64,000 nt of DNA from an uncultured Chloroflexia bacterium (GCA_963697135.1 CAVOMZ010000007.1:209110-273109), one strand, 5' to 3'; positions 1-14,371 are shown, counted from the first letter of the stretch. Notes: generated by a model from the sequence alone, not told the origin. Numbers and translations are program-made.

Positions 1-515
1 GTTCCGGGCGTGACCAGGCGGATCGCCGCCTGCATGCCCTTGGCCCAGTGACCCGGGATGTGACAGCCGACCAGGATCGGGCCGGGATCCAGCGGGACGG
101 TCCACTTCAGGCTGACCAGCTGGCCCGAGTTGACCACGATCCGGATCCCGGCCACGCCGGGGGGGACCGAGACGACCGGGGTCGGGCCGGGCGGCGGGTT
201 CGCGGCCCCGGCTTCGGCCGCCTCCCAGGCGTCCTGGACCGCGGCGTCACCGATGACCACCTCGTGGACCTCCAGGCCGCCATTGATCACGTGGAGCAGG
301 ACCGTCTCACCAGGGACGAGGTCCACGATCGGGGGCTGGAACGAGTAGTCCTTGGCGATGATGTTGACGTCGCGCGGCGCCTCGGCGGTCCCGGCCGAGA
401 TGGGCGGTGTGGGCGGCGCGTCCCCGGAACAGGCGGCGACCAGCAGGACGATCCCGAGGAGCGCCGCGACGGCTGGCCCGCGGGCGGCCTGCAGGCTGTT
501 CCGAAATGCGCGCAC
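1..515 (-). CDS. Blue-copper (cupredoxin, plastocyanin/azurin-like) lipoprotein. Partial: the C-terminus runs off the window start.
   Basis: Minus-strand translation from GTG at 515 gives VRAFRNSLQAARGPAVAALLGIVLLVAAC (signal peptide plus lipobox) followed by a cupredoxin fold with C-H-x-x-x-M in CHIPGHWAKGM (type-1 Cu ligands). An in-frame TAG lies just upstream of the GTG. This ORF was not in the supplied track; I translated it myself. Confidence 0.6.
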   Translation of the reverse strand, partial: MRAFRNSLQAARGPAVAALLGIVLLVAACSGDAPPTPPISAGTAEAPRDVNIIAKDYSFQPPIVDLVPGETVLLHVINGGLEVHEVVIGDAAVQDAWEAAEAGAANPPPGPTPVVSVPPGVAGIRIVVNSGQLVSLKWTVPLDPGPILVGCHIPGHWAKGMQAAIRLVTPG

Positions 516-981
516 GAGGGCAGTCTAGAAGGGCCGTCCGCTTGACACCGGCTCGGTCGAGGAGCCTCGGTGATCGTGACCATCTTCCTGATCCTGCTCT
601 CGACGATCCCGGTCTTCCTCGCCCAGCGCCTGAGCTCGGACACGACCGGGATCGCCGGGCGCTGAGGTCCTCTCGCCGAGTCGGCGGGAGCGATGTCAGA
701 ACCAGCGCCGACCGAACGGCGGGTGATTGACCTGGGTCTGACCGACGACGGTCCGGCCGACACCGAAGGCCGCACTGGGCCGGGGCAGGCTGCCGATCGC
801 CCCGACGACAAGGAAGAGGATCACGGACACGACCGTGACGAGCTGACGCACGCGAAGTTGGGCGCTGCGCATGGTGGTCCTCCTGGAACCCCTGAGTCCG
901 ATGTGCCCGACCAACGGAGTCTCGTCCCGGCCGCTTACCTGCGGCTTATCCGCGACGGCCGCGGACGGCTACCCTTGGCCG

Positions 982-1323
982 ATGAACCCGAGCCAGCTGG
1001 AGTCGGTCCGGATCACCCTCGAGGCGGAGCGGGCCCGACTCCTGGCCGACCTGGCCGAACCGCCCTCGACGCCGGGCCAGATGACCTACGGCTCGCAGGC
1101 CGCCGCCGCCAGCGAGGTCTTTGCCCAGCAACGTGACCTGGCCCTGCGCGACAAGTCGGGCAAGGGCCTCGACCTGGTCGACGGGGCACTCGCCCGGCTC
1201 GCTGCCGGGACGTACGGCACGTGCCTCCGCTGCGGCCGGCCGATCCCCGACGAGCGGCTCGAGGCGCTGCCCTGGGCCGCCTTCGACCTGGCCTGCCAGC
1301 AGCTCGAGCGGGACGGCCGCTGA
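982..1323 (+). CDS. DksA/TraR-family C4 zinc-finger protein
   Basis: MNPSQLESVRITLEAERARLL..., then a CxxC(x17)CxxC-type C-terminus, CLRCGRPIPDERLEALPWAAFDLAC. Internal ATG at 982 of the 871..1323 ORF. Confidence 0.6.
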   Translation: MNPSQLESVRITLEAERARLLADLAEPPSTPGQMTYGSQAAAASEVFAQQRDLALRDKSGKGLDLVDGALARLAAGTYGTCLRCGRPIPDERLEALPWAAFDLACQQLERDGR

Positions 1324-2336
1324 TGGCCGCCGAGGAGAGCCCCGGAACTGAGCCAGGGCTGGTCGGGATCGAGGCGATCCGGGCCGCCGCCGACCAGCTT
1401 CGGGGGGTCGCCCTGCGCACGCCGCTGCTCGCCTTCGGGCCCCCGACCGGCACGAGTACCTCAAGGCCGAGTCGCTCCAGCCCATCGGCGCATTCAAGCT
1501 GCGGGGCGCCTATGTCGCGATTGCCGCGCTCGACCCGGCCGTCCAGGCCCGGGGCGTGATCACCTACTCCAGCGGCAACCACGCCCAGGGCGTGGCCCGG
1601 GCCGCCCGCCTGCTCGGGATCCCGGCGGTCGTCGTCATGCCCTCGGACGCCCCGGCGATCAAGCGCGACCGGGTCGCCGCCGATGGGGCCGAGGTCGTCA
1701 TCGTGGGGCCTGCCAGCGAGGAGCGCCGGCTTCGGGCCGAGCAGCTCGCGGCCGAGCGTGGCCTGGCGATCATCCCGCCCTACGACGACGACCGGATCAT
1801 TGCCGGCCAGGGGACCTGCGGGCTCGAGATCGCCGAGGACCTGCCCGACCTCGCGGCCGTCCTCGTCCCGATCGGCGGGGGCGGCCTGGCCGCTGGAGTC
1901 GCCACGCGCGGTCCGCGCCATCCGGCCGGCCGCCCGGATCGTCGGGGTCGAGCCGGAGCTGGCCGCCGATGCCCGCGATTCGTTCCGGGCCGGCCGGATC
2001 GTGGCCTGGCCGGCCGAGCAGGTCGGTCGGACGATCTCCGACGGGACGCGAACCCAGTCGATCGGCCGGCGCAACCTGGCCCACCTGCTGGCCAACCTGG
2101 ATGACATCGTGACCGTCAGCGAGGCCGAGATCGAGGCGGCCGTCCGGCTCGCCGCCGAGGAGTGCCGCCTGGTGGTCGAGCCGTCGGGCGCCCTGGGGAT
2201 CGCCGCCCTCCGCTTCCGCTCGACCGAGGCCGGCCTGACCGGGCTCGAGGGCTCGCGGGTGGCGATCGTCAGCGGCGGAAACGTCGACCCGGGCCAGTAC
2301 CGGGCGATCCTGGCCGGGACCCAGCCGCCGGCCTGA
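1323..2336 (+). CDS. PLP-dependent threonine/serine dehydratase (catabolic-type ammonia-lyase). At least two frame shifts in this assembly.
   Basis: ESLQPIGAFKLRGAY (PLP-lysine motif), ITYSSGNHAQGVA, a GGGGL glycine loop and a C-terminal ...VAIVSGGNVD. The homologous frame jumps between ORFs 1221..1559, 1556..2104 and 1683..2336. Confidence 0.7.
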
Positions 2337-2404
2337 GGCCGGGTCTCGGCAGCCGGCCCCACGGCCGGCTGAGGCGGCTCGGCCGTGAGGCCGGCGCCAC
2401 CCGT

Positions 2405-3484
2405 TCAGCCTGAGCGCGGGTCTCCGCGTTCGTTGGCCAGCCGCTCGGCGAGGCGGACCTCGCGCTCCCGGATCGCGGCGACCTGGGGCGCGACCCGGGC
2501 GTCGATCGCCGCCGTCTGGCGCTCCTCGTGCCGGAGCAGGCCACCCAGGATCAGCATCACCGCCAGCATGAACACGACGTCGCCGGTGATCCACATGATC
2601 CCGCCGGCCAGCCGCTGGTCGTCGATCACGCTCGGTCCCCAGGTCCGGACCTGGTTCACGTAGTGGGCGTACAGCGGGACCGCGGCGCTGTACGAGGACG
2701 ACCCCCAGGAACGTGTTCTGGGGCATCTGCAGGAACGTGTAGACCAGGCGATGGGGATGGCGCATCCGCCACGGGGTCGGATCGATGCCGACCGCCGGTC
2801 CACCAGAAGAGGAGGGCCGTGATCAGGAAGCCGGCATGCTCGAGCTGGTGGACGAACGGGTTCTCGAGGGCCAGCTCGAACAGGCTGCGAGAAGTGGGCG
2901 ACCCACATGTAGCCGGCGAACAGGATCCAGGTGACGACGGGGAACGAGATCGCCCGGAGGATCCGCGAGTGGAGGACCGGCAGGATCCAGCGCCGGCGGA
3001 CCTCCGGGCGGGAGAAGCGCAGGAGCAGGGTGATCGGGGCGCCGAGGACCAGGAGCGGCGCCGCGACCATCGTCAGGAGCACGTGCTGGACCATGTGGTC
3101 GCTGAACAGGGTCGAGTCGTAGGCCTCGATCGGCGACTGGAGGGCGATCTCGATCGCCAGCAGGCCGAGCAGCCAGCAGGCGAGCCGGATCCCCCGGACA
3201 TGGCTCAGCGGATGGGCCGCGTTCACCCGCCGGACCATCCACAGGTAGCCGACCGCGGCGAGCACGAGGGGCACGACGATCGTCGGGTCGAACGACCAGA
3301 GGAACAGGACCGAGGGCAGGCTGGGTGGCGGCGGGGGCGTGCCCGAGTGGGCCGAGGCAGCGCCGGCGAGGCCGAGCCAGGCGAGCGAGGCGAGGCCGCC
3401 TCCGGCGATCAGCGACGGCAGGCGGGCACCGAGGCGCTTCGGCGGGCGGCTCTGGCGAGAGCGGAAGCGACCATCTCGGGCCAT
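2405..3484 (-). CDS. ctaG: Cytochrome c oxidase assembly factor CtaG (Caa3_CtaG family). Frame-shifted near 2700-2880.
   Basis: Polytopic membrane protein with HMVQHVLLTMVAAPLLVLGAP and a C-terminal YAHYVNQVRTWGPSVIDDQRLAGGIMWITGDVVFM. Divergent to the cox operon. The homologous frame continues in ORFs 2405..3484 and 2823..3542. Confidence 0.65.
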   Translation of the reverse strand: MARDGRFRSRQSRPPKRLGARLPSLIAGGGLASLAWLGLAGAASAHSGTPPPPPSLPSVLFLWSFDPTIVVPLVLAAVGYLWMVRRVNAAHPLSHVRGIRLACWLLGLLAIEIALQSPIEAYDSTLFSDHMVQHVLLTMVAAPLLVLGAPITLLLRFSRPEVRRRWILPVLHSRILRAISFPVVTWILFAGYMWVAHFSQPVRAGPREPVRPPARACRLPDHGPPLLVDRRSASIRPRGGCAIPIAWSTRSCRCPRTRSWGSSSYSAAVPLYAHYVNQVRTWGPSVIDDQRLAGGIMWITGDVVFMLAVMLILGGLLRHEERQTAAIDARVAPQVAAIREREVRLAERLANERGDPRSG

Positions 3485-3635
3485 TCTGCGCCCTCTCCGA
3501 GAGAGGGTCGGATGCGCACGCCGGCGGCCGCCCCGCTATCATGCGCTCGGGGCACGTTGTGCCGGGCGCGGTGCTGCGCCAGACACCCCAGGGCCTCCTG
3601 CCGCTTCCAGGATCACGACGAGGAAGCTACCGCTG

Positions 3636-4727
3636 ATGTCGAACCCCACGCCCCGGTCGCCAGGCAGCAACTGGCTGGCGTTCGCCTTCCTGGGCGGGGT
3701 GCTGGCCCTGATCGCCGGGCTGATCTGGGCGGTCCTGGCGGGCAAGCTCGAGCCGCCGGCGCCGGTCACGACCGAGGCCCAGGCCACCCGCGACCTGTAC
3801 AACTTCGTCTTCGTCGTGGCCGCGGTGATCTTCCTCTTCGTCGAGGCCCTGATCGTCTTCGCGGTCATCCGCTACCGGCGCAAGCCGACCGACACCGAGC
3901 TGCCGCCGCAGATCCACGGCAACAGCCTCCTCGAAGTCCTCTGGACGGTCATCCCGACGATCCTCGTCGTGATCCTGTTCATCTTCTCGTGGAACACCCT
4001 CAACACGGTCGATGCGGTCTCGCCGGCCCCGGCCCTGACCGTGCGGGCCGTGGCGGCCCAGTTCGAATGGGAGTTCGACTACCTCGCCCCGGACGGCCAG
4101 ACGGTCCAGTTCCGACAGCAGACGCCCGAGCTCGACCTGCCGGTCGGGGTGGACGTCCACGTGATCCTCCGCTCGAACGACGTGATCCACGCGTTCTACG
4201 TCCCGAAGTTCCTGTTCAAGCGGGACGTCGTCCCGGGCCTCGAGAACAACTTCGACTTCACGATCGATCCGGCCGACGTCAACCAGACCTTCCGGGGCCA
4301 GTGCGCCGAGTTCTGCGGAACGTTCCACAGCACGATGCTGTTCTCGGTCAAGGCGCTCAGCCCGACCGACTTCAACACCTGGCTGCAGAATCAGATCAAG
4401 ACCGCGGCGGCCACGCCGGCGCCGGCGCCATCGGGTGGCGGGACGGCCGCCACGACCCTCGACCTGACCGCCCACAACATTGCCTACGACACGTCTTCGC
4501 TCGCGGCGCCGGCTGGCCAGCCGTTCATCATCAACTTCACGAACAACGACCCGAGCGTGCCCCACAACGTCCAGATCGCCGACGGAACCGGCCAGGTCAT
4601 CTTCAAGGGCGAGCTCGTGACCGGCCCCGACCATCGCCAGTATCCGATCCCGGCCCTGGCGGCCGGCACCTACACCTTCTCCTGTTCCGTTCACCCGCAG
4701 ATGACCGGAACGCTCACGGTCAAGTAA
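3636..4727 (+). CDS. ctaC: Cytochrome c oxidase subunit II with an additional C-terminal type-1 copper (cupredoxin) domain
   Basis: Two N-terminal TM helices. CuA site H..CAEFCGTFHSTM. C-terminal extension ...PHNVQIADG...CSVHPQMTGTLTVK (H, C, H, M ligands). Start ATG 3636 is in frame within ORF 3339..4727. Confidence 0.85.
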   Translation: MSNPTPRSPGSNWLAFAFLGGVLALIAGLIWAVLAGKLEPPAPVTTEAQATRDLYNFVFVVAAVIFLFVEALIVFAVIRYRRKPTDTELPPQIHGNSLLEVLWTVIPTILVVILFIFSWNTLNTVDAVSPAPALTVRAVAAQFEWEFDYLAPDGQTVQFRQQTPELDLPVGVDVHVILRSNDVIHAFYVPKFLFKRDVVPGLENNFDFTIDPADVNQTFRGQCAEFCGTFHSTMLFSVKALSPTDFNTWLQNQIKTAAATPAPAPSGGGTAATTLDLTAHNIAYDTSSLAAPAGQPFIINFTNNDPSVPHNVQIADGTGQVIFKGELVTGPDHRQYPIPALAAGTYTFSCSVHPQMTGTLTVK

Positions 4728-4736
4728 GGAGCACTG

Positions 4737-6353
4737 ATGGCGACGACGACGCTGCGGGCGGGAGTGGGCTATCGGACCGGGCTGTACGAATGGCTGACCA
4801 CGACCGATCACAAGAAGATCGGGATCCTGTATCTCGCCAACTCGATCCTGATGTTCCTGCTGGGCGGCACCTTCGCCCTGGTCGTCCGGGTCGAGCTGGC
4901 CCAGCCGGGGCTCCAGTTCCTGACCGACTCCCAGTACAACCAGGCGTTCACGATCCACGCCTCGCTGATGCTCTTCCTGTTCGTCATCCCGGTCCTGGCC
5001 GGCTTCGGCAACTACCTCGTGCCGCTGATGATCGGCGCGCCGGACATGGCCTTCCCGCGGATCAACGCCTTCTCGTTCTGGCTGCTGCCCCTCGGCGCGA
5101 TCGTGATGCTCTCGGGCTTCGCCACCGGGACCGGGGCGGCGGCCGCCGGCTGGACCGAATACAGCCCGCTCGCCCAGGCGAAGTACTCGGGGATCGGGAC
5201 CGACCTGTGGATCGTGGCCCTGCTGCTGATCGGCACGAGCTCGATCCTCGGCTCGATCAACTTCATCGTCACGATCTTCAAGATGCGGGCGCCGGGGATG
5301 ACCCTGCTGCGGATGCCGATCATGGTCTGGACGATGCTCGTCACCAGCATCCTGGTCCTGATGGCCACGCCGGTCCTGACCAGCGCCCTGATCATGCTGT
5401 TCATCGACCGGAACCTGGGCGGCCACTTCTTCGACCCGGCCACCGGCGGCAACGCGATCCTGTGGCAGAACACGTTCTGGTTCTACTCCCACCCGGCCGT
5501 CTACATCATGATCCTGCCGGCGATGGGGATCATCAGCGAGATCCTGCCGGTCTTCAGCCGCAAGCCGCTCTTCGGCTACAAGGCCTTCGTGTTCGCGACG
5601 GCGGCCATCGGCGCCCTGGGCTTCTCGGTCTGGGCCCACCACATGTTCACGACCGGGGCGGTCTACCTGCCGTTCTTCAGCTTCATGACCTTCCTGATCG
5701 CGATCCCGACCGGGGTCAAGTTCTTCAACTGGATCGCCACGATGTTCCGCGGCCAGCTGACGTTCTCGACGCCGCTGCTGTACTCGCTCGGCTTCCTGAC
5801 GATGTTCCTGATCGGCGGGATCAACGGTGCCTTCAGCGCGGCCGTGCCGGTCGACTTCGCCCTGCACGACACGTACTGGGTCGTGGCCCACATCCACTAC
5901 GTCCTGTTCGGCGGCTCGGTCTTCGCGGTCTTCGCCGGGCTGTACTACTGGTGGCCCAAGATGTTCGGCCGGAGGCTGAACGAGACCCTCGGCAAGATCC
6001 AGTTCGTGTTCATGTTCATCGGCTTCAACCTGACCTTCTTCCCGATGCACATCCTCGGCCTGAGCGGGATGCCCCGCCGGATCGCCGACTATGACCCGAC
6101 GGCCGGCTGGAACGACCTGAACCTGCTGGCGACGATCGGCGGCTTCGTGATCGCCTTCAGCATCGTGCCCTTCCTGTGGAACGTGTTCATCACGTTCCGG
6201 TCGGGCGAGCCCGCCGGCGATGATCCCTGGGAGGGCAACACGCTCGAGTGGGCGACCTCCTCGCCGCCGCCGCCCTACAACTTCGATCACCTCCCGGAGA
6301 TCCGCTCCGAGCGCCCGGTCTTCGACGCCCGCCATGGGGCGAGCCACGCGTGA
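4737..6353 (+). CDS. ctaD: Cytochrome c oxidase subunit I (heme-copper oxidase, aa3 type)
   Basis: 538 aa, 12-TM COX1 signature throughout (WFFGHPEVY-like ...FYSHPAVYIMILPAMG, HHMF, HDTYWVVAHIHYV). Confidence 0.95.
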   Translation: MATTTLRAGVGYRTGLYEWLTTTDHKKIGILYLANSILMFLLGGTFALVVRVELAQPGLQFLTDSQYNQAFTIHASLMLFLFVIPVLAGFGNYLVPLMIGAPDMAFPRINAFSFWLLPLGAIVMLSGFATGTGAAAAGWTEYSPLAQAKYSGIGTDLWIVALLLIGTSSILGSINFIVTIFKMRAPGMTLLRMPIMVWTMLVTSILVLMATPVLTSALIMLFIDRNLGGHFFDPATGGNAILWQNTFWFYSHPAVYIMILPAMGIISEILPVFSRKPLFGYKAFVFATAAIGALGFSVWAHHMFTTGAVYLPFFSFMTFLIAIPTGVKFFNWIATMFRGQLTFSTPLLYSLGFLTMFLIGGINGAFSAAVPVDFALHDTYWVVAHIHYVLFGGSVFAVFAGLYYWWPKMFGRRLNETLGKIQFVFMFIGFNLTFFPMHILGLSGMPRRIADYDPTAGWNDLNLLATIGGFVIAFSIVPFLWNVFITFRSGEPAGDDPWEGNTLEWATSSPPPPYNFDHLPEIRSERPVFDARHGASHA

Positions 6354-6983
6354 GCGCCGAGCCGATGGCCCTCCAGGTCAGCCACGACGACGCGGGCGGC
6401 CACGACGAGGAGGGGATCAGCAACGTCATCCTGGGGATGATCCTGTTCATCTGCTCGGAGGTGATGTTCTTCGCCGGGCTGTTCGCGGCCTACTTCAACG
6501 TCCGGGCGAACGCGCCGGTCTGGCCGCCGGAGGGCAATCCGCACTTCCACCTGGCCAACGAGATCACCCTGCCCCTGATCATCACGATCCTCCTGATCAT
6601 CAGCTCCTTCACCTGCCAGCTGGCGGTCTGGTCGATCCGCAAGGGTGACCGGGCCGGCCTGATCCGGAACATCGCGGTGACCCTGACCCTGGGGATCATC
6701 TTCCTGCTCGGCCAGGCGCTACGACTACACCCAGCTCGGGTTCACCCTGGCCGACGGCACCTTCGGCACGACGTTCTTCACCCTGACCGGCTTCCACGGC
6801 GCCCACGTCCTGGGCGGAGCGATCATGCTCAGCGTCGTCCTCTACCGCTCGCTGGCCGGGCAGTTCTCGGCCAGGCACCACGACATGGTCGAGGCGGTCT
6901 CGCTCTACTGGCACTTCGTGGACGTGGTCTGGATCGTCCTGTTCTCGCTGCTGTATCTCGTGCCGGCCGCGGCGGCCCACTGA
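6350..6983 (+). CDS. ctaE: Cytochrome c oxidase subunit III. One frame shift near 6717-6721.
   Basis: GTG at 6350 overlaps the ctaD stop. ...ICSEVMFFAGLFAAYF... continues after a 1-nt slip as YDYTQLGFTLADGTFGTTFFTLTGFHGAHVLGGAIML...HFVDVVWIVLFSLLYLVPAAAAH*, stop 6981-6983. Confidence 0.8.
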
Positions 6984-6997
6984 CGGAAGGCGGTCAG

Positions 6998-7174
6998 ATG
7001 CACCCGATTCCGCATCCGCGCCTGGCCCTCCTGAGCGGGCTCCTGTTCGCCGGCGTCGGGCTCGTCTACTACGCCTTGAGCCATGACATCGGGGGCGCCT
7101 CGATGGAGATCATCCTGGGCATCGCGATGAGCCTGATGTTCTACGTCCTGATGGCCGGCTCCCCGCGCGGCTGA
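6998..7174 (+). CDS. Small two-TM membrane protein, putative oxidase subunit IV-like
   Basis: MHPIPHPRLALLSGLLFAGVGLVYYALSHDIGGASMEIILGIAMSLMFYVLMAG. Sits directly after ctaE in the operon. Hydrophobic, 58 aa. Confidence 0.4.
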   Translation: MHPIPHPRLALLSGLLFAGVGLVYYALSHDIGGASMEIILGIAMSLMFYVLMAGSPRG

Positions 7175-7202
7175 GCGCCCAGGAACTGACGAAGCCCGCC
7201 TG

Positions 7203-8285
7203 ATGGACCAGATCTGGACCTCACTCATCAACTTCATTGCCCAGTTCGTGTCGCCCGACTGGGGCAAGGTGATCGGGCTCCTGCCACTCATGCTCCTGGC
7301 CCTCGTGGGCCTCTATGGCGTCTGGCTCGTCCGGAGCCTGGCCCTGCTCGGGCCGGCCCAGCGCGGCGGCCGTCCGCTGCCACCGCTGCCGCCCGCCGGG
7401 ATCCACATGCCGGGACCGTCGCTTGCCCCGGCCTTCGGGGCGCTCGGGTTCGGCCTCGTCGTCTGGGGCCTGGTCTTCCGGGCGATCCTGCCGATCGGCC
7501 TGATCGTGCTCGTCCTGGCCCTGCTCTACTGGCTGCGCGAGGGAATGCGCGATTACGACCACATCGAGCCGACGAAGGTGATCCTGCCGGCGGTAATTCA
7601 CGATGGTCCCCCGCCCGGCGTCCACATGCCCGGGCCGTCGTTCCGGCCGATCCTGGGCGGCCTGTCGATGATGGTCATCGTGTTCGGCCTGGTCTTCGGC
7701 TGGGCCCTCTTCGTGGCCGGGCTGCTGATGCTCGGGGCAACCCTGCTCGGCTGGCTGCGCGACGCCCGGACCGAGTACAGCCTGACCGTGGAGGCCGATC
7801 GCACCGGCCACCTCCGGAACGCCCCGGCGCCGCACTACCCGAGCGGAACGCTGACGTTCTTCGCGGTCGTCCTGATCGGGGCGATCCTGGTCAACTTCGG
7901 GATCATCCCGCCGGGCAGCTCGAGCGGCGGGACGGCCGGGGCCAGTGGAGCACCCGGGGCGAGCGGCTCGCCCGGCGCCAGCGCCGAGCCCAGCGGGGTC
8001 GCGGCCGACGTCACGATCGGGGCCAAGAACATCGCCTACACCCCGAACAAGGCCGACGCGCCGGCCGGCCGGGCCTTCACGATCGCCTTTGACAACCAGG
8101 ACGCCGGGATCCCCCACAACATCTCGATCCAGACCGGGGGCGCCGGCAGCCAGCAGGTCTTCCTGGGCAAGATCGTGACCGGGCCGGTCGTCGAGATCTA
8201 CAACGTGCCGGCCCTGCCCGCCGGGACATACACCTATGTCTGCTCGGTTCATGCCACCATGACCGGGGTCCTGACCGTCAAGTAG
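7203..8285 (+). CDS. Membrane protein with an internally duplicated TM module and a C-terminal cupredoxin (type-1 Cu) domain
   Basis: Repeated GIHMPGPSLAPAFGALGFGLVVWGLVF / GVHMPGPSFRPILGGLSMMVIVFGLVF modules. Gly/Ser/Ala linker. C-terminus PHNISIQTG...CSVHATMTGVLTVK, paralogous to the COX2 C-terminal domain. Confidence 0.75.
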   Translation: MDQIWTSLINFIAQFVSPDWGKVIGLLPLMLLALVGLYGVWLVRSLALLGPAQRGGRPLPPLPPAGIHMPGPSLAPAFGALGFGLVVWGLVFRAILPIGLIVLVLALLYWLREGMRDYDHIEPTKVILPAVIHDGPPPGVHMPGPSFRPILGGLSMMVIVFGLVFGWALFVAGLLMLGATLLGWLRDARTEYSLTVEADRTGHLRNAPAPHYPSGTLTFFAVVLIGAILVNFGIIPPGSSSGGTAGASGAPGASGSPGASAEPSGVAADVTIGAKNIAYTPNKADAPAGRAFTIAFDNQDAGIPHNISIQTGGAGSQQVFLGKIVTGPVVEIYNVPALPAGTYTYVCSVHATMTGVLTVK

Positions 8286-8300
8286 CCGGGCCCGATCACC

Positions 8301-8900
8301 ATGGAACCTCGTCCGGATGCCGCTCCCGAGCCTCGTCCGGACGCCGCTCCCGTGAGCCGCCGGTCCCGCCATCTCCGCCCCCTGGCCGTCCTGGCGGTCA
8401 TCGTCGTCGTGGCCCTGGCCGGCTGGGCGATCCACGATGGATCCGGCTGCGCCTCGGCCGAGCCGACCGGGATCGCCGCGGCGGAGCCGGGCCAGCCGGC
8501 CCCGGCCCTCGTCGGGACGACCCTCGACGGGCAGCCATTCGACCTCGCCGCGGAGCGCGGCCGGCCGGTCATCGTCAACTTCTGGGCGTCCTGGTGCGTC
8601 CCCTGCCAGGCCGAGTTCCCGCTCCTCCAGGCGGCCCAGGCGGCCCACGCCGCCGATGGCCTGGTGGTCGTCGGGGTGATCTACCAGGACACCTCGTCGG
8701 CGGCCAAGGCCTTCGCTGCGAGCCATGGCGGGACCTGGATCAACGTGGCCGATCCGTGCGGCAGCATCGCCACGGCCTACACCGTCGTTGCCCCGCCCCA
8801 GACCTACTTCATCACGGCCGACGGCGTCCTGAAGTCGCGCCAGATCGGCGAGATCACCGAACCCGACCTCGAGCGGCAGCTGAGCGCGATCCTGCCCTGA
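8301..8900 (+). CDS. TlpA/ResA-like thiol-disulfide oxidoreductase (thioredoxin fold)
   Basis: N-terminal TM, then IVNFWASWCVPCQAEFP (WCxPC active site). Last gene of the cox cluster. Confidence 0.8.
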   Translation: MEPRPDAAPEPRPDAAPVSRRSRHLRPLAVLAVIVVVALAGWAIHDGSGCASAEPTGIAAAEPGQPAPALVGTTLDGQPFDLAAERGRPVIVNFWASWCVPCQAEFPLLQAAQAAHAADGLVVVGVIYQDTSSAAKAFAASHGGTWINVADPCGSIATAYTVVAPPQTYFITADGVLKSRQIGEITEPDLERQLSAILP

Positions 8901-8972
8901 GCGCGGGGCCAGGGGCCGATGGAAAAGGGAACCCCGGGTGGTCGGGACCCGGGGTTCAGGGAAATGCTTCTT

Positions 8973-9046
8973 GGTTGCGGGGGGCGGATTCGAACCGCCG
9001 ACCTTCGGGTTATGAGCCCGACGAGCTGCCGCTGCTCCACCCCGCG
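8973..9046 (-). tRNA. tRNA-fMet (initiator), anticodon CAT, CCA encoded
   Basis: Reverse complement CGCGGGGTGGAGCAGCGGCAGCTCGTCGGGCTCATAACCCGAAGGTCGGCGGTTCGAATCCGCCCCCCGCAACCA. C1:A72 mismatch, three G-C pairs closing the anticodon stem, GGTTCGAATCC T-loop. Confidence 0.8.
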
Positions 9047-9053
9047 AAGGCAA

Positions 9054-10370
9054 CTATAGCACAGGGAGCCCGGATCCCCTCTGGGCGGCCTTCCGCCGGG
9101 CCAGGTCCCGCATGGCCCGGCCGCCGATCGCCAGGCTGAGCGCGAGGACAACCAGCTCGCCCAGGCTCGAGAACCAGAACGGATAGCGGAGGTCGGAGCC
9201 GGCCAGCCAGCCGGCGATCACCGCGGACAGGATGAAGCCGACCGTGCCCGCCGCCCCGAACAGGCCCTGGGCGGTCGCCGAGCGGCCGCGCGGGCTGCCC
9301 GCTGCCACGATCGCGTAGACCGCCGGAAAGGCGATCGCGATGCCCGCCGACTCGAACAGGATGATCGGGATCGAGAGGCGGACGTCGGGCATGATCGTGT
9401 ACAGCGTCGCCGCGATCGCCGTGGCCAGGCTGCCCAGGATGACGAACAGCAGGCTGCCCCGCCGATCGACGACCCGGCCGGCCCAGGGCGAGAGCAGGAT
9501 CTGGGGCACGGCGAACATCGCGAAGGTGGCCCCGACGAGGGCCAGGCCGGCCCCTCGCGAGGTCAGGAACAGGCTCCAGACCACCTCGTACGTGCCGGTC
9601 GCGAAGTTGTTGCCCAGGTTGACCACGATCGCCGTCAGCAGGAGCCGGTTGGCGAGGCGGGTCGGCCGGAACGGATCCTCGAGCGTCGGCTCTGCCCGGG
9701 GGTCGCGCCGATCGATCGAGGCGGCCATCTCACCGACCCCCTCGGCCGGCACGGTCGTGGCCACCCGCGTCCGCGGTCCCTCGTGGACGAGGGCGAGCAT
9801 GGCGATTCCGGCCAGGGCGGTGGCGATCCCGCAGAAGACGAAGACGAAGGCATCCGAGCCGGTCAGGGCCGCGCCGACGCCGCCGATCGCGGGTCCGAAC
9901 AGGAGGCCGCCCATCTGGGCCGCGCCGTACAGCCCGAACGCCTCGCCCTGGCGGTCCTCCGAGGTCGAGTCGACCAGGAACCCGCGGGCGGCCGGGTCGT
10001 AGACGGCGGTGGCGGCCCCGGTCAGGGCCCGCAGGACGACGAACGGCAGGAGGCCGTAGCTGACCAGGTTGAGCGGGATCAGGCCGGCTGTGACAAACAG
10101 GGCGCCGACCATCAAGGGCTTGCGCCGGGTCCGGTCGGCGACCCAGCCGAAGACCGGCTCGAAGACGAGCCGGGCGGCCGGCCAGGCCGCGACGACGAGG
10201 CCGAGGTGCTCGAGGCTGACCCCGTGGTTCGTCGTGTACAGGGGCAGAACGGGCAGGAGCGCCCCGAAGCCGACCCACAGGATGAACTCCGCCAGCAGGA
10301 GCGGCACGATCGGCCCCCAGCGAACCAGCCAGGCGGCGCTCTTGGGCTCGGTGGAGGCGGTCATCGACAA
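9054..10370 (-). CDS. MFS transporter
   Basis: 438 aa, 12 predicted TM helices, GWVADRTRRKPLMVGAL motif region. Confidence 0.85.
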   Translation of the reverse strand: MSMTASTEPKSAAWLVRWGPIVPLLLAEFILWVGFGALLPVLPLYTTNHGVSLEHLGLVVAAWPAARLVFEPVFGWVADRTRRKPLMVGALFVTAGLIPLNLVSYGLLPFVVLRALTGAATAVYDPAARGFLVDSTSEDRQGEAFGLYGAAQMGGLLFGPAIGGVGAALTGSDAFVFVFCGIATALAGIAMLALVHEGPRTRVATTVPAEGVGEMAASIDRRDPRAEPTLEDPFRPTRLANRLLLTAIVVNLGNNFATGTYEVVWSLFLTSRGAGLALVGATFAMFAVPQILLSPWAGRVVDRRGSLLFVILGSLATAIAATLYTIMPDVRLSIPIILFESAGIAIAFPAVYAIVAAGSPRGRSATAQGLFGAAGTVGFILSAVIAGWLAGSDLRYPFWFSSLGELVVLALSLAIGGRAMRDLARRKAAQRGSGLPVL

Positions 10371-10517
10371 GGGCTCGATGCGGATCGGAGACCCATCGTA
10401 CGGGCTGCCACGGGTCCCCTCGATCCCGTCCCGGACGGCGCGCCGCCAGGGGGCCGGCGGCCACGAGGCGGGCCGACCGGCGCGAGGCGGGGCCGGCCTC
10501 GCCGCTATCCTGACGAC

Positions 10518-10778
10518 GTGCTGCTCAGCCCTGCCTTCCTCGTCGTGGCGATCCTGGCCGCCCTGATCGCCCTGGCCCCGGTCCGGCGGCTCCAGCGGCT
10601 GGGCTGGCCGGCGAGCTGGCTGCGAACCTACTGGATCGTGTTCGTGATCTGCGGGGTGATCCTGGGCGAGGTCCCGTCATCGGCCAAGCTGCTCGTGCCA
10701 GGCCTCCTGGTCGCCGGCCTCCTCCCGTACGTCGCCGGAGGTCCGCTCAGCCGGGCGGCCCGCCGCCGGGGCCGCTGA
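10518..10778 (+). CDS. Small hypothetical membrane protein
   Basis: GTG-initiated C-terminal part of ORF 9783..10778: LLSPAFLVVAILAALIALAPV...WIVFVICGVILG...LLVAGLLPYVAG. Two or three TM helices. Weak. Confidence 0.3.
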   Translation: MLLSPAFLVVAILAALIALAPVRRLQRLGWPASWLRTYWIVFVICGVILGEVPSSAKLLVPGLLVAGLLPYVAGGPLSRAARRRGR

Positions 10779-10820
10779 CCGCCGGGGCCGCTGACCGCCT
10801 GCTGTCCGCCGGACGGGCGG

Positions 10821-10896
10821 TGGTGAGCCGTCTGGGATTCGAACCCAGGACCAATCGCTTAAAAGGCGACTGCTCTAACCGCTGAGCTAACGGCCC
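10821..10896 (-). tRNA. tRNA-Lys, anticodon TTT, CCA encoded
   Basis: Reverse complement GGGCCGTTAGCTCAGCGGTTAGAGCAGTCGCCTTTTAAGCGATTGGTCCTGGGTTCGAATCCCAGACGGCTCACCA. Anticodon loop CTTTTAA. Confidence 0.85.
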
Positions 10897-10977
10897 ATGC
10901 CTGGGGCTGGGCCGAGTCTAGCATCGGGTTGCGGGCCTCCGGCAGCGCCATTCGAGCGTGCTTGCTACGATCGGCCC

Positions 10978-11355
10978 GTGACCGATTTCTACACGATCGA
11001 CCGGGCCAACGAACGCCTCGAAACGCTTCAGCCGGTGCTGGCCCAGCTGCGCGACCAGCGCGCCGAGCTGCGCGAGCTGAAGGCCTCGTTCGATGCCACC
11101 GAGCCGGGCCCAGAGCGCGAGCGGCTGCGCCTGCGGATGCAGGGCGTCGTCGATCAGATGCAGGCCGGGGTCGTCCGGATCGACGACTGGCGAGTCACCC
11201 TGCGCGACATCGCCACGGGCCTGGTCGACTTCCCGGCGCTCGTGTCCGGCCGCCAGGTCTGGCTCTGCTGGCAGCTCGGCGAGTCGGACGTGGCCTGGTG
11301 GCACGAGCTGGAGGCCGGGGTCGCCGGCCGGCAGCCCCTGATCGCGCTACGGTAG
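10978..11355 (+). CDS. Hypothetical protein (possibly DUF2203-like)
   Basis: GTG start inside ORF 10897..11355: VTDFYTIDRANERLETLQPVLAQLRDQRAELRELKA...GLVDFPALVSGRQVWLCWQLGESDVAWWHELEAG. Family assignment is from memory only. Confidence 0.45.
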   Translation: MTDFYTIDRANERLETLQPVLAQLRDQRAELRELKASFDATEPGPERERLRLRMQGVVDQMQAGVVRIDDWRVTLRDIATGLVDFPALVSGRQVWLCWQLGESDVAWWHELEAGVAGRQPLIALR

Positions 11356-11362
11356 GACGGAC

Positions 11363-11732
11363 ATGAGCGTTCCGCCCCCCATCCCGTCGATCGAGCCGGC
11401 CGAGGCCGAGCGGCGCCTGCGGGAAGGTGATCCTGACGGCCGGAGACCGCTCCTGGTCGACGTCCGGAACCTGGACGAGTTCATCGAGGCCCGGGTCGCC
11501 GGCGCCCGGTTCATCCCGCTGCCGGAGTTCGGGACCCGGTTCGAGGAGCTGCCCCGGGATCGGCCGCTCTTCCTGTTCTGTCGGTCCGGATCTCGCTCGG
11601 CAGCCGCGACGGCTCACCTCGTGCGGCCAGGGCTGGACCGACGTCAGCAACGTGAGCGGCGGCCTGATCGGCTGGCAGTGGGCGAAGCTGCCGCTCGTCG
11701 AAGGCCCGCTCGGACCGGGCGAGGGCAGCTAG
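11363..11732 (+). CDS. Rhodanese-domain sulfurtransferase. One frame shift near 11625.
   Basis: ...LLVDVRNLDEFIEARVAGARFIPLPEF...LFLFCRSGSRSAAATAHL, then after a slip ...QGWTDVSNVSGGLIGWQWAKLPLVEG. Catalytic Cys in CRSGSRS. Confidence 0.7.
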
Positions 11733-11782
11733 GCCAGCGGGGCCGGGCGCCTGTGCCCTGCCGCTCGACCCGGGCAGGCGGC

Positions 11783-13258
11783 CTAGTGGCGGCGCCGGCG
11801 GAAGCGCTCCCACAGCTGGCGGGTCTTCTCCTTGTGGGCGAAGGCCCAGCCGATCAGGATCAGCAGGATGAAGTCGACCGTGCCCGCTCCGGCGGCGCTC
11901 AGGTAGCCGAGCTGCTGGCCGATGTCGCCCCCGATCTGCAGGGCCGGAATCGTGGCCCCGACGAGGCCCAGGGCGAAGAACGGCGGTTGGGGGGCCAGGT
12001 TGGCCCGGACGCTGGCGGTGATCACGCCGGTCGCGGTGGTCCCCCCGACGAGGAACGCGTTCGAGCCGCTGGCGAGGCCCGATGAGCCGGTCAGGCCGCC
12101 GCTGCTGGCCGGCAGGTCGCTCTGGCTCAGGTGCTGCCAGCCGCTGATGTTGCCGCTCGCGTCTGGCGTGGTCCAGTAGGTCTCGGTCTGGGGGCTCGTC
12201 CCGTCGCTGCCGCCGACCAGGTAGATCACCCCGTTCGAGGTGAATCCGGCGGCGTTGGTCCGGGGAGCCGGCAGGTTGGTGGCGCCCACCCCGGTGCCCC
12301 AGCGCTGGACCACCACGGCCGCGGCCGCGCCCGAAGGCAGGGGCGAGGGCGCCGGCGAAGCCGACGCCGCAGACCCGGTGTCGGCCCGCAGGACGACGGC
12401 GGTCGGGCCGGTCGCGTCACGCCCGCCGTACATGAACAGCTCGCTGCCGATCACCGAGCCGAGGGCCTGGCTGCGCGGCTGGGGCATCGCGATCTGGTTG
12501 GTCCAGGGCAGGAGCTTGCCGGTCGGGTCGGCGGTCGCCTTCCAGACGGTCGAGGTCGGGCCGCTGCCATCCGTCCCGCCCAGGACGAACAGGCCGTCCG
12601 AGGCGGCGACGACCGTGGCCGAGGCCCGCGGGGACGGCAGGACGAGGTCCTTGCTCTCGGAGAATTCGGCGAACTGGTTGGTCGCGGCGTCCTGGGCCGA
12701 GACGAAGACCGTCGAGGTCGGCTTGCCGTCGCTGCCGAAGCCGCCGATCACGTAGATCGTGCTGTTGAGGAAGATCACGGCCGCATCGGCTCGCGGGGCC
12801 GGCAGCTTGAGCGGCGAGGTCTGCCATGGGCCGAACGTGCCGCTGAACAGGGGCGTCGTGTAGATCTGGTCGGAGACGTTCGTGCCGTCCGTGCCCCCGA
12901 TGTAGAACAGGTTCGTGCCGGCCTGGATCACCGTCCCGTCGGTTCGCGGGGCGGGCAGGGCCAGCTCGGTCGGCGAAGGCTGCCAGGGCAGGGGCGCCCC
13001 GGCCGGAGCCGGGCAGGGCAGGGTCTCATTGCTCGGCGGGCAGAGGTTGATCGGGGAGATGACGTTGACCCCGACATCGATCGTCGGGAAGACGATGAAG
13101 TAGTAGGCCCGGTCCGGGATATAGCCCAGGAGCATGATGATCGTGACGAACCAGAAGGATGCCTTCAGGAACGCCCAGGTCCAGCCCTCGCCGTCGAGCA
13201 GCCCGAACAGGACCCGTCCCCGTCCAGGGCTGCCCGCGTTGAGCGTCTGTCCCGCCAT
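11783..13258 (-). CDS. Kelch-repeat beta-propeller membrane protein with N-terminal and C-terminal TM segments
   Basis: Repeated ...LPAPRxxAAxx...LFVLGGTDGSGPTSTV... blades (at least five). The N-terminal TM is FWFVTIIMLLGYIP. The C-terminal anchor is VDFILLILIGWAFA. Confidence 0.75.
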   Translation of the reverse strand: MAGQTLNAGSPGRGRVLFGLLDGEGWTWAFLKASFWFVTIIMLLGYIPDRAYYFIVFPTIDVGVNVISPINLCPPSNETLPCPAPAGAPLPWQPSPTELALPAPRTDGTVIQAGTNLFYIGGTDGTNVSDQIYTTPLFSGTFGPWQTSPLKLPAPRADAAVIFLNSTIYVIGGFGSDGKPTSTVFVSAQDAATNQFAEFSESKDLVLPSPRASATVVAASDGLFVLGGTDGSGPTSTVWKATADPTGKLLPWTNQIAMPQPRSQALGSVIGSELFMYGGRDATGPTAVVLRADTGSAASASPAPSPLPSGAAAAVVVQRWGTGVGATNLPAPRTNAAGFTSNGVIYLVGGSDGTSPQTETYWTTPDASGNISGWQHLSQSDLPASSGGLTGSSGLASGSNAFLVGGTTATGVITASVRANLAPQPPFFALGLVGATIPALQIGGDIGQQLGYLSAAGAGTVDFILLILIGWAFAHKEKTRQLWERFRRRRH

Positions 13259-13303
13259 CGTCCTCCATCCCCGGCACTGACCCGCTGGGGGCCGGTGCGC
13301 CGT

Positions 13304-14371
13304 CTACTTGACCGCGAGCGTTCCCGTCATGTTCGGGTGGACCGCGCAGTGGTACGTGTACGCCCCGGCCGGCAGCGCCGGCACGCTGTAGTCCTTGGTC
13401 GCCGGGCCGTTGAAGATGTCGCCGGTAAAGACCGTCGAGCCGCCCGAGTTGACGATCACGACGTTGTGCGGGACCGAGGCATCCATGTTGTTGAACTGGA
13501 GGTCGAAGGCCGTGTTGGCCGGGGCCGCCAGCGTCGTCTGGGTGAAGGCGATGTTCTGGGCGTCGAGCTTGACCACCGTCTCGCCGGGGGCCGGGGTGGT
13601 GGCCGGGGTGCTGGCCGAAGGCGAGCTGGTCAGGGCCGAGCTCCAGCAGGCCGGCACCGGGGTCGCCCCGGGTGGCGGGGCGTAGTTCGGGTCGCGCCAG
13701 CCGTTGAACGTCTCGGGCTTGCCGTTCGGACCGATCACCGGTTCATTCGTGCTGGCGTCCCGGACCTGGTAGGTCATCGTGCTGGGCGCCCGGATGAAGT
13801 CGATCAGGTTCTGGATCTGGATGTAGTTCAGCGGCCCGCCGTTGATGTCGGCCCAGACCGGCATGAGGCTGTCGGGGTTGCCGCAGACGTAGCGGCCACC
13901 CACCGTCAGGACGTTCTGGATGTACTGCGGGTTCAGGTGGACGTAGAGCTTGATCTGGCTGTTCAGGACCGGCCCGATTCCGCCCTGGCCGGCGGCTCCG
14001 TGGCAACGGGCGCAGTTTGCCTCGAACAGGTTGTAGCCGGCCTCGACCGAGGTGACCTGCTGGGCCGCGACCTCGGCCTGCTGGCGGGACGAGTTGGCCA
14101 CGCCCGGAAAGCCCACGTCGTAGAACCAGTACAGGATCACGAAGACGACGACGAAGAGGGTCGCCAGGAAGCCGACCCAGCGGGCGCTACCGCTCTGGCG
14201 GACGATCCCGGCGGCCCGCTCCGGGGTAAGCGCCGCCTGGTGGGCCGAAGGTGGAGCAGAGAACCGTTCGACCGGGGCCGGCGTGCTTTCGGGGCGGGCG
14301 GCCGGCAGTCGTTCGTCGCCGCCCGAGGGCGTCGGCAGGGAGTCGTTCGGGCCGCTCATGCTCACAGGCAC
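13304..14371 (-). CDS. Membrane-anchored mono-heme cytochrome c fused to a C-terminal cupredoxin domain
   Basis: TM FLATLFVVVFVILYWF. Heme motif CARCHGAAGQGG. C-terminal VPHNVVIVNSGG...CAVHPNMTGTLAVK, paralogous to the COX2 C-terminal domain. Last gene of the bc operon. Confidence 0.85.
   Translation of the reverse strand: MPVSMSGPNDSLPTPSGGDERLPAARPESTPAPVERFSAPPSAHQAALTPERAAGIVRQSGSARWVGFLATLFVVVFVILYWFYDVGFPGVANSSRQQAEVAAQQVTSVEAGYNLFEANCARCHGAAGQGGIGPVLNSQIKLYVHLNPQYIQNVLTVGGRYVCGNPDSLMPVWADINGGPLNYIQIQNLIDFIRAPSTMTYQVRDASTNEPVIGPNGKPETFNGWRDPNYAPPPGATPVPACWSSALTSSPSASTPATTPAPGETVVKLDAQNIAFTQTTLAAPANTAFDLQFNNMDASVPHNVVIVNSGGSTVFTGDIFNGPATKDYSVPALPAGAYTYHCAVHPNMTGTLAVK

Follow-up and report, generated by a model that had tools for sequence, protein, structure and literature searches.

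Three respiratory proteins of an uncultured bacterium of the Limnocylindrales (Chloroflexota; soil and freshwater), namely COX2, a predicted CtaF-like subunit IV and the cytochrome c of the bc complex, end in a type-1 copper domain of about 95 residues. We consider it rather probable that these domains are copper modules, flexibly tethered outside both respiratory complexes, which relay electrons between complexes III and IV. The window, i.e. the whole stretch of DNA analysed, is 64 kb long, and its relatives were represented by their loci plus flanks; 12 species-level genomes from several studies, short-read assemblies included, were compared. The cox and bc operons lay within about 8 kb of each other at every locus showing both. 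No published description of this fused-cupredoxin system was found.

The type-1 copper domains and their relatives

A six-frame motif scan of the 64-kb window gave exactly three matches to the cupredoxin C-terminal motif, each with PHN upstream: CSVHPQMTGTLTVK in COX2, CSVHATMTGVLTVK in the subunit IV membrane protein and CAVHPNMTGTLAVK in the cytochrome c. The three domains were 49.5-50.5% identical in pairwise BLASTP (E 1e-30 to 6e-33, 89-97 bits), as compared to at most 27 bits against any solved cupredoxin, and they are far closer to one another than to any cupredoxin of solved structure. Pfam Cupredoxin_1 (PF13473) and Copper-bind (PF00127) were the families used for the type-1 copper test, and the fused domains scored 45.2, 39.8 and 34.5 bits with Cupredoxin_1, all above the cut-off of 27. 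The ligand set His ... Cys-x2-His-x2-Met was found in all three, and the predicted fold is the Greek-key beta-sandwich of cupredoxins (pLDDT >90). The closest structures were auracyanin, amicyanin and plastocyanin, with auracyanin 1ov8 as the best sequence match among solved cupredoxins (E 4.5e-5, about 25 bits) and 6kol as the top Foldseek match. The His, Cys, His and Met residues were invariant in 289 related domains (119 fused to COX2, 120 to subunit IV, 12 to cytochrome c and 38 stand-alone), and the check for ligand loss that the initial annotation had called for revealed none. Copper delivery or storage for the assembly of CuA and CuB, in the chaperone-like manner of PCuAC or CupA and in place of electron transfer, is very improbable as the function of these domains, since PCuAC uses a His/Met motif whereas the full type-1 set is invariant here, one of the domains sits on the bc cytochrome c, in a complex without copper, and the closest structures are all electron carriers.

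These comparisons support one paralogous redox module that was duplicated and fused to different carriers. Its duplication and grafting onto the bc cytochrome c and COX2, as the initial annotation had proposed, agrees with the identity of about 50% and with the conserved architecture, while a recent common origin of the domains was contradicted by the tree. The cytochrome c-fused domains formed a clade with 100% bootstrap, the nearest neighbour of each COX2- or subunit IV-fused domain was of the same carrier type, and orthologs span a whole order; the duplications are therefore old. The linkers to the copper domains are flexible, consisting of 71-84% Pro/Ser/Thr/Ala/Gly and having low pLDDT. 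Among orthologs the median linker is 38 residues past the CuA methionine in COX2 and 33 past the last helix in subunit IV, and that of the cytochrome c ranges from 18 to 25 residues. Judged by hydropathy and the positive-inside rule, all three copper domains are outside the membrane.

A lipoprotein at 3..524 (minus strand; lipobox VAAC), the last few residues of which are cut off by the window start, had been counted as a fourth paralog, and this part of the claim did not stand. It carries the ligand pattern His...C-x4-H-x4-M (H...CHIPGHWAKGM), and its kinship with the trio was ruled out by the lack of detectable BLAST similarity (E > 0.3) together with a Pfam Cupredoxin_1 score of 17.8 bits, below the cut-off of 27. 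The best NCBIfam match was CopI (NF051440; E 4e-12, 46.1 bits, profile positions 32-87), and assignment to this copper-resistance cuproprotein was rejected at the cut-off of 280 bits. As judged from these profile and BLAST comparisons, the lipoprotein is a cupredoxin of another, CopI-like family. Compared with the cytochrome c-fused cupredoxin domains of P0296 it was 27% identical (E 3e-5), and its ortholog in L002 lies 5 kb from the cox genes.

Stand-alone lipoproteins related to the trio domain (53-69% identical), which have a signal peptide and a lipobox, are common and are encoded away from respiratory genes. Tandem arrays of 2-4 such copper domains on membrane anchors were found elsewhere. 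Both kinds of proteins would be in line with copper domains serving as general entry and exit ports, in which case the cytochrome c would feed free lipid-anchored cupredoxins and the oxidase would collect electrons from these and other donors, making contact between the bc complex and the oxidase unnecessary; the two copper domains of the oxidase would also fit several donors. We regard such ports as unlikely, albeit as an explanation to be taken seriously, because they presuppose stand-alone forms in the same genomes as the fusions, and because a dedicated pair is indicated by the conserved cox-bc neighbourhood and by the paralogs forming a matched set. The ports overlap with the direct relay between complexes III and IV and do not exclude it, and part of the electron traffic could run via diffusing copper carriers.

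The cox operon and its copper-bearing subunits

COX2 (3636..4727, plus strand; Pfam COX2_TM, COX2 and Cupredoxin_1) consists of a CuA domain, a linker and the C-terminal type-1 copper domain. The ORF coordinates of the initial annotation were correct, with the amendments that COX2 starts at 3636, giving a protein identical to database entry P0042, and that the cytochrome c is on the minus strand. The CuA site is complete (H185, C223-x-E-x-C227-x3-H231-x2-M234, read as C223-A-E-F-C-G-T-F-H-S-T-M234), its ligands are invariant in 39 orthologs, and the protein scored 174.2 bits with NCBIfam CoxB (TIGR02866), above the cut-off of 147.7. A PSTAG-rich linker at about residues 251-278 leads to the copper domain (about nt 4446-4724). 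The AF2 model had a pLDDT of 87 with a low-confidence linker, and the closest solved structures were mycobacterial CtaC and Thermus caa3 subunit II (2yev_B). COX2 is without CxxCH; it is the bc cytochrome c that has the single CxxCH of the 64-kb window (at 14014).

Oxidase subunit I follows at 4737..6353 (plus strand; Pfam COX1, 549 bits). Its motif WFYSHPAVY, present in the window and in L002, L003 and L006, has Tyr-Ser replacing the helix VI glutamate, which we take to be the A2-type signature of caa3 enzymes. Subunit III (6365..6983, plus strand) is a short, 5-helix protein of about 205 aa; two frames match Pfam COX3, and the intact COX3 of L002 matches it in two pieces by tblastn, on account of a 1-bp insertion near 6718. 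Between COX3 and the gene of the subunit IV-cupredoxin protein, translation revealed a two-helix ORF of 58 aa (6998..7174, plus strand), which is 76-86% identical and in the same position in L002, L003, L004, L006, L012 and L013; the NCBIfam family search gave no match for it, and it is possibly a small oxidase subunit.

The third carrier is a six-helix membrane protein at 7203..8285 (plus strand) with a linker of about 35 residues in the window and the copper domain at about nt 8007-8282. Its two internal repeats are related to actinobacterial oxidase subunit IV (CtaF). The protein of the window scored 18.1 bits with CtaF (PF12270; cut-off 26.9), and all 43 aligned orthologs matched this family at E <= 0.01 (best 5e-14), with the limit that the family profile also matches helices 1-2 of canonical COX3 twice. 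Fold searches matched mostly the cupredoxin domain, not the membrane part. By sequence relationship the third carrier is probably a CtaF-like subunit IV, and the conserved place of its gene among the cox genes, 3' of COX3 and of the 58-aa ORF, makes it a putative member of the oxidase. This assignment would strengthen the idea of a copper module shared by the bc complex and the oxidase.

The initial annotation had also named a Kelch protein, a TlpA thioredoxin and CtaG as neighbours, and Pfam matches confirmed all three. A TlpA-like membrane-anchored thiol-disulfide oxidoreductase (8301..8900, plus strand; Pfam Redoxin and AhpC-TSA) is kept directly 3' of the subunit IV-cupredoxin gene in relatives. 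TlpA has a role in CuA assembly (PMC9145763), and the protein found here probably reduces copper-site cysteines. The Caa3_CtaG-type oxidase assembly factor (2405..3484, minus strand; Pfam Caa3_CtaG, 153.6 bits) is encoded divergently from the cox operon, and its position is the same in L002.

The bc operon and its cytochrome c

The cytochrome c (13304..14371, minus strand; Pfam Cytochrome_CBB3, Cytochrom_C and Cupredoxin_1) is a monoheme protein. From a cytoplasmic N-terminus it continues through one membrane helix (residues 65-83) into a class I heme domain (CARCH; SLMPVW) and a conserved pair of cysteines, after which a linker of some 22 residues leads to the copper domain (about nt 13307-13588). 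Having one CxxCH and only 26.5 bits with the QcrC profile (200 required), it is not diheme. Full-length orthologs were found in 12 genomes (51-97% identity), and the same architecture occurs in the distant clusters P0282, P0412 and P0421. When the same operon occurs in another lineage, the C-terminal position of the cytochrome c is taken by a cupredoxin of a different family, which suggests that selection acts on having a copper exit domain rather than on one particular family.

A GltD-like NAD(P)-binding flavoprotein with Fe-S domains (16513..18348, minus strand; Pfam Fer4_20, Pyr_redox_2 and Fer4; NCBIfam NAD(P)-binding protein, E 5e-128) opens the bc operon, its gene overlapping the b6 start by 4 nt; it is 95-99% identical and syntenic in the 12 genomes and is also found in the distant P0296 operon. 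The cytochrome b6-type subunit (15788..16516, minus strand; Pfam Cytochrome_B, 153 bits) is 98-100% identical across the 12 genomes and scored 297 bits with NCBIfam ExtP (cut-off 290) and 217 bits with cytochrome b6. The petD-like C-terminal half of cytochrome b, subunit IV of the bc complex (15061..15663, minus strand; Pfam Cytochrom_B_C), carries the APWY Qo motif (KAPWYF) of the clade described under this name (PMC4122944). The Rieske iron-sulfur protein (14365..15038, minus strand; CPHLGC...CPCHGS) was read in three frames and by tblastn with the intact L001 ortholog, which matches Pfam Rieske; the end of its gene overlaps the cytochrome c start. The operon is closed by a Kelch beta-propeller protein, both ends of which bear a membrane helix (11783..13258, minus strand; Pfam Kelch families, hydropathy), and its gene lies 3' of the cytochrome c gene in 12/12 genomes and in the P0296 operon. 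The order of the b6, subunit IV, Rieske and cytochrome c genes in this one operon is identical in 12 genomes, two frame corrections being needed for the Rieske gene of the window. Since the operon also encodes the GltD-like flavoprotein and the Kelch protein, the bc complex may be other than a plain quinol:cytochrome c reductase.

As compared to the near-identical genome L003, the window has 1-bp insertions that disrupt COX3 once (at about 6718) and Rieske twice (at about 14686 and about 14528), while the ORFs of all three fusions are unbroken. We read these frameshifts as assembly errors, although, strictly speaking, the strain might have pseudogenes here. Three 1-bp insertions in adjacent genes, together with frameshifts in the related long-read MAGs L001, L011, L012 and L013, might raise the suspicion that the fusions themselves are artefacts of assembly or gene calling, in which indels joined neighbouring genes. 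This suspicion has practically no probability left and is refuted by the best homologs of COX2 and of subunit IV (120/120 in each case), which have the same architecture and come as unbroken proteins from NCBI, ENA, JGI and Logan and from short-read contigs (NODE_, k141_), as well as by the 12 genomes that share architecture and gene order; the linkers are moreover in frame and conserved in length.

A copper relay between complexes III and IV

In the relay that we favour, electrons from menaquinol would pass via the Rieske cluster to heme c of the membrane-anchored cytochrome c and from there to its own C-terminal copper domain, which would reduce the copper domain of subunit II, that of the CtaF-like subunit IV, or both; these would in turn pass the electrons to CuA, heme a and heme a3-CuB. 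The direction and partners of transfer are those that we infer for domains predicted to bind copper, and the bc complex and the oxidase may form a stable supercomplex.

The oxidase resembles the caa3 (A2) enzymes of Thermus thermophilus and Rhodothermus marinus in the YSHPAVY motif of subunit I, the Caa3_CtaG factor and a subunit II with its own C-terminal carrier domain, and the Thermus subunit II (2yev_B) had the highest identity (36%) among the best structural matches to COX2. The fused carrier of caa3 is cytochrome c, whereas here it is a type-1 copper cupredoxin, and the copper domain of subunit II would thus replace the cytochrome c domain. Unlike caa3, the present system has a second carrier domain on the subunit IV-like protein, and subunits I and III are unfused. 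The actinobacterial bcc-aa3 supercomplex (Mycobacterium, Corynebacterium) likewise works in single-membrane cells with a bc cytochrome that bears an extra redox domain. It has no free cytochrome c, and the extra domain reaches CuA. Its CtaC ranks first among the structural matches to the COX2 part, its CtaF is related to the third carrier and its QcrC is weakly matched by the cytochrome c domain. However, the second domain of its bc cytochrome is heme and not copper, cytochrome b is split here (b6 and subunit IV), the oxidase itself bears copper domains here, and bcc-aa3 is a physical supercomplex, which the present system may or may not form.

Among the precedents, halocyanin fused to ba3 oxidase subunit IIa in Halobacterium and Haloarcula comes closest to the subunit IV-cupredoxin protein; there a blue-copper donor is carried by a small accessory membrane subunit (PMC3128077). 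That system belongs to archaea, its oxidase is of the B type, and its carrier has a single helix and no relationship to CtaF. To our knowledge, neither its subunit II nor a bc cytochrome c has been reported to bear a matching copper domain. Halocyanin and sulfocyanin substitute for cytochrome c in archaea, and in the SoxM complex of Sulfolobus sulfocyanin (SoxE) is the blue-copper link from the Rieske/cytochrome b module to the heme-copper oxidase within one complex (PMC4122944). Sulfocyanin forms a subunit of its own and replaces cytochrome c altogether, whereas the present system retains heme c and adds copper to the polypeptide that carries it. Within the same phylum, auracyanin of Chloroflexus and Roseiflexus is also a membrane-tethered blue-copper carrier, but it stands alone and works with Alternative Complex III, and its similarity to the fused trio is remote (about 25 bits against 89-97 among the trio).

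The host has a single membrane and no closed periplasm, and hence its electron carriers must be anchored. In the relay proposed here, the anchoring would be achieved by gene fusion and the carrier would be copper, and this copper relay is probably used in place of free cytochrome c.

Three related cupredoxin domains and their carriers

A six-frame scan of the window for a Cys...His...Met...Gly pattern gave exactly three sites, namely the C-termini of the oxidase subunit COX2 (3636-4727, + strand), of a 360-aa membrane protein (7203-8285, +) and of the cytochrome c of the bc operon (13304-14371, -). The sequences quoted in the initial annotation are indeed present at these three C-termini. Each domain of ~95 residues passes the Pfam Cupredoxin_1 cut-off, and BLAST showed pairwise identities of 49.5-50.5% (E 1e-30 to 6e-33). 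The closest solved structures by sequence, auracyanin B, NirK and amicyanin, scored only ~24-27 bits, so the three domains resemble each other far more than they resemble known cupredoxins. The linkers that carry them are composed of 71-84% Pro/Ser/Thr/Ala/Gly, with lengths alike among orthologs, and hydropathy together with the positive-inside rule placed all copper domains outside the membrane.

The mean identity within carriers was 63% for COX2-fused, 57% for subunit IV-fused (the 360-aa protein family) and 82% for cytochrome c-fused domains, and 50-52% between carriers. In a neighbour-joining tree of 92 columns the cytochrome c-fused domains formed a clade with 100% bootstrap, and the nearest neighbour of every COX2- or subunit IV-fused domain sits on the same carrier; the duplications are therefore older than this group's radiation. 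The same tree gave no resolution of the duplication order, nor did it show whether COX2-fused and subunit IV-fused domains are each monophyletic (bootstrap 4%). The recent common origin envisaged at first does not hold, because the carrier types are conserved across the order and the identity between carriers is still ~50%.

The best-supported reading is that the three domains are tethered blue-copper modules with a putative function in electron transfer. The ligands His, Cys, His and Met were invariant in 119 COX2-fused, 120 subunit IV-fused, 12 cytochrome c-fused and 38 stand-alone domains. A role as copper chaperones is unlikely, since this type-1 ligand set never varies and one of the domains is fused to a copper-free complex. 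A search with the domain only retrieved mostly stand-alone lipoprotein cupredoxins of 130-170 aa (53-69% identity), and the existence of such relatives leaves room for a copper shuttle that is partly diffusible. The closest apparent stand-alone match, P0001, proved to be a shortened gene call: in the relative from which it comes, a frameshift interrupts the cytochrome c gene. Tandem arrays with two to four copies of the same domain, on membrane anchors or large surface proteins, were also found in other organisms (P0313, P0332, P0339, P0405, P0399, P0352, P0354 and P0418), all with a complete ligand set, and these may be multi-copper electron conduits.

The respiratory island and the spread of the fusions

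Because the G+C content of the window is ~70%, genes across the 64 kb were called by third-position G+C and family searches. The respiratory genes form an island at 2.4-18.3 kb; the region of 18.4-64 kb contains signalling, peptidase, pilus-type and other genes and showed no respiratory function. The cox operon (+ strand) is composed of COX2, COX1 (4737-6353), a short form of COX3 (6365-6983), a 58-aa ORF (6998-7174), the gene of the 360-aa protein and that of a TlpA-like redoxin (8301-8900), and the Caa3_CtaG gene (2405-3484) is divergent from it. The bc operon (- strand) opens with the gene of a GltD-like NAD(P)/Fe-S flavoprotein of 611 aa (16513-18348), whose stop overlaps the start of cytochrome b6 (15788-16516) by 4 nt, and continues with the bc subunit IV (15061-15663), the Rieske protein (14365-15038), the cytochrome c with its C-terminal cupredoxin and a Kelch propeller protein (11783-13258). 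The two operons are separated by MFS, DUF2203 (10897-11355, +) and rhodanese-domain (11363-12085, +) genes, the latter two of which keep this location in all relatives.

COX3 and Rieske are each spread across reading frames in the window. As compared to L003, the 3.1-Mb chromosome of a near-identical organism, there are three single-base insertions, one in COX3 (~6718) and two in Rieske (~14528 and ~14686). Both genes are unbroken in L003 and most other relatives, so the insertions are probably long-read assembly errors; frameshifts also occur in further long-read MAGs of the group, from the same project (L001, L011, L012 and L013). All three fusion ORFs run without interruption in the window.

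The database proteins P0042 and P0162, which share a 417-kb contig, are identical to the COX2 and the 360-aa membrane protein of the window, respectively. Among the best 120 homologs of COX2 (53-79% identity) all 120 carry COX2_TM, COX2 and Cupredoxin_1, and for the membrane protein (best 120 homologs, 46-84%) Cupredoxin_1 is likewise present in all, in most of them together with Cyt_c_ox_IV. The named homologs belong to 'Candidatus Limnocylindrales' or Chloroflexota MAGs. For the cytochrome c fusion, a scan of species-representative genomes yielded 12 full-length orthologs (51-97% identity), from genomes of several studies and including short-read assemblies. Recurrence of the same fusions in these homologs and genomes excludes a frameshift artefact as their source. 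The order GltD-like, b6, subunit IV, Rieske, cytochrome c-cupredoxin, Kelch is constant in 12/12 genomes, and the cox operon, including the subunit IV-cupredoxin gene, lies no more than ~8 kb away at every locus with sufficient flank. When 1.8 billion cluster representatives were searched exhaustively, the same cytochrome c-cupredoxin arrangement turned up in several further clusters (P0282, P0412 and P0421; 36-61% identity), and P0421 is encoded directly after a Rieske gene. P0296, from another lineage, is encoded in the same six-gene operon, and this cytochrome c bears two copies of a different cupredoxin family. A copper domain at the C-terminus of the cytochrome c thus recurs across lineages, with the family that supplies it differing.

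The lipoprotein encoded at 3-524 (-), which had been counted as a fourth paralog, belongs to another cupredoxin family. It does carry a His...CHIPGHWAKGM pattern, but it showed no BLAST similarity to the three domains and scored below the Pfam Cupredoxin_1 cut-off; its best NCBIfam match, CopI, was far under the cut-off of that model. The cupredoxin family of P0296 (CTVPGHYAAGM) is weakly related to it (27% identity, E 3e-5). Relatives of this C-x2-PGH-x4-M type are carried by the bc cytochrome c of P0296 and of P0305 (a JGI 3300042731 contig). Because these weakly related domains replace the plastocyanin-like domain on the bc cytochrome c elsewhere, the lipoprotein, too, could have a redox function instead of a CopI-like one in copper resistance.

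Features of the bc complex and the oxidase

The N-terminus of the cytochrome c is cytoplasmic and conserved, and the protein has a single membrane helix. Its heme motif, CARCH, is the only CxxCH in the 64 kb, and the axial Met is likely that of SLMPVW. A Cys pair (YVCGN ... PxCW, residues ~163 and ~241) flanks the C-terminal extension of its cytochrome c domain and is kept in all orthologs as well as in P0282, P0296 and P0305; a disulfide between the two residues may fix the start of the linker. The Kelch propeller protein has a membrane helix at both ends. In all 12 genomes, and likewise in the distant operon of P0296, its gene comes after that of the cytochrome c-cupredoxin protein. It may serve the bc complex as a subunit or assembly factor not recognised before. 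Conservation among the related loci L003-L014 is uneven: identity to the window is 98-100% for b6 and 95-99% for the GltD-like protein, and lower for the cytochrome c-cupredoxin (78-83%) and the Kelch protein (71-81%).

In NCBIfam the b6 subunit scored above the ExtP cut-off, and an APWY Qo motif is present in the bc subunit IV. Together with the GltD-like protein they recall the Rieske/cytochrome b complexes of anammox bacteria, which themselves bear a GltD-like NAD(P) oxidoreductase subunit. The presence of such an operon beside an aerobic oxidase was unexpected. Planctomycetes and delta-Proteobacteria are among the members of the APWY clade (PMC4122944), and a proposal for the anammox complexes is that they couple the oxidation of quinol to the reduction of NAD(P) (bioRxiv 10.1101/855817).

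On the oxidase side, COX2 contains the full CuA site (H185 and C-A-E-F-C-G-T-F-H-S-T-M) and no heme motif. COX1 has the motif WFYSHPAVY, which we take to be the A2-type signature known from Thermus and Rhodothermus caa3 oxidases, and the assembly factor of the oxidase matches Pfam Caa3_CtaG. The AF2 model of COX2 (pLDDT 87) is composed of three helices, the CuA domain, a further helix, a linker of low confidence and a cupredoxin domain modelled with confidence; among solved structures it is best matched by mycobacterial CtaC, from the bcc-aa3 supercomplex, and by the caa3 subunit II of Thermus (36% identity). In the 360-aa membrane protein the six helices are arranged as 1+2+2+1, and the sequence contains two internal repeats. 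The aligned orthologs of this protein all match Pfam Cyt_c_ox_IV (43/43, best E 5e-14), and its family profile gave two weak matches to helices 1-2 of canonical COX3, which fits the short five-helix form of COX3 present here. Most likely it is a real oxidase subunit. The 58-aa ORF is conserved in every relative (76-86% identity), always with COX3 on one side and the subunit IV-cupredoxin gene on the other; family searches gave no match, two helices are predicted, and its product may be a small oxidase subunit.

A putative copper link between complexes III and IV

With tethered copper modules, the bc complex would terminate in heme c followed by a putative copper domain, and electrons would enter the oxidase through one or two putative copper domains before CuA. 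On subunit II, the copper domain would occupy the position that cytochrome c has in caa3 enzymes. As a general rule the carriers of single-membrane bacteria are anchored or fused, examples being the caa3 of Bacillus and the diheme QcrC of Actinobacteria, and the tethered-copper reading agrees with this. It also matches the situation in archaea, where halocyanin or sulfocyanin is used instead of cytochrome c (PMC4122944). Among precedents, the haloarchaeal ba3 oxidase comes closest to the subunit IV fusion; there, halocyanin is fused to subunit IIa (PMC3128077). A speculative and rather unlikely extension is that Limnocylindrales possess an all-tethered link of heme c -> type-1 Cu -> type-1 Cu -> CuA inside an obligate bc-aa3 supercomplex, where the three paralogous copper domains on swinging linkers would replace every diffusible carrier and an unusual bc complex would also hold the NAD(P)-binding Fe-S flavoprotein and the Kelch propeller. 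If so, a respiratory chain built in this way would be a first among bacteria, and its cytochrome c-cupredoxin hybrid would represent a subunit of a new kind.

The principle of tethered or fused carriers is already known. What appears to be undescribed, in a bacterial class, is the bc cytochrome c-cupredoxin hybrid, the cupredoxin at the caa3 position of subunit II and the third paralog on a CtaF-like subunit. We found no published description of these fusions, which is absence of evidence only as most subscription journals lay outside the search, and a 2026 genomic survey of Limnocylindria makes no mention of these proteins. Public labels are generic, like 'cytochrome c oxidase subunit II', 'plastocyanin' and 'cupredoxin domain-containing protein'.

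Limnocylindria (formerly Ellin6529) are abundant uncultured bacteria of soil and freshwater, and to our knowledge their respiration has not been examined previously. Two solutions for joining complexes III and IV in single-membrane bacteria are known, the fused cytochrome c of caa3 and the diheme cytochrome cc of Actinobacteria; copper domains on both partners would be a third. They would also offer a compact natural case for heme-to-copper and copper-to-copper transfer between tethered domains. Thousands of generically labelled database proteins would then be parts of one system, and the respiration of these organisms would be closely bound to copper supply.
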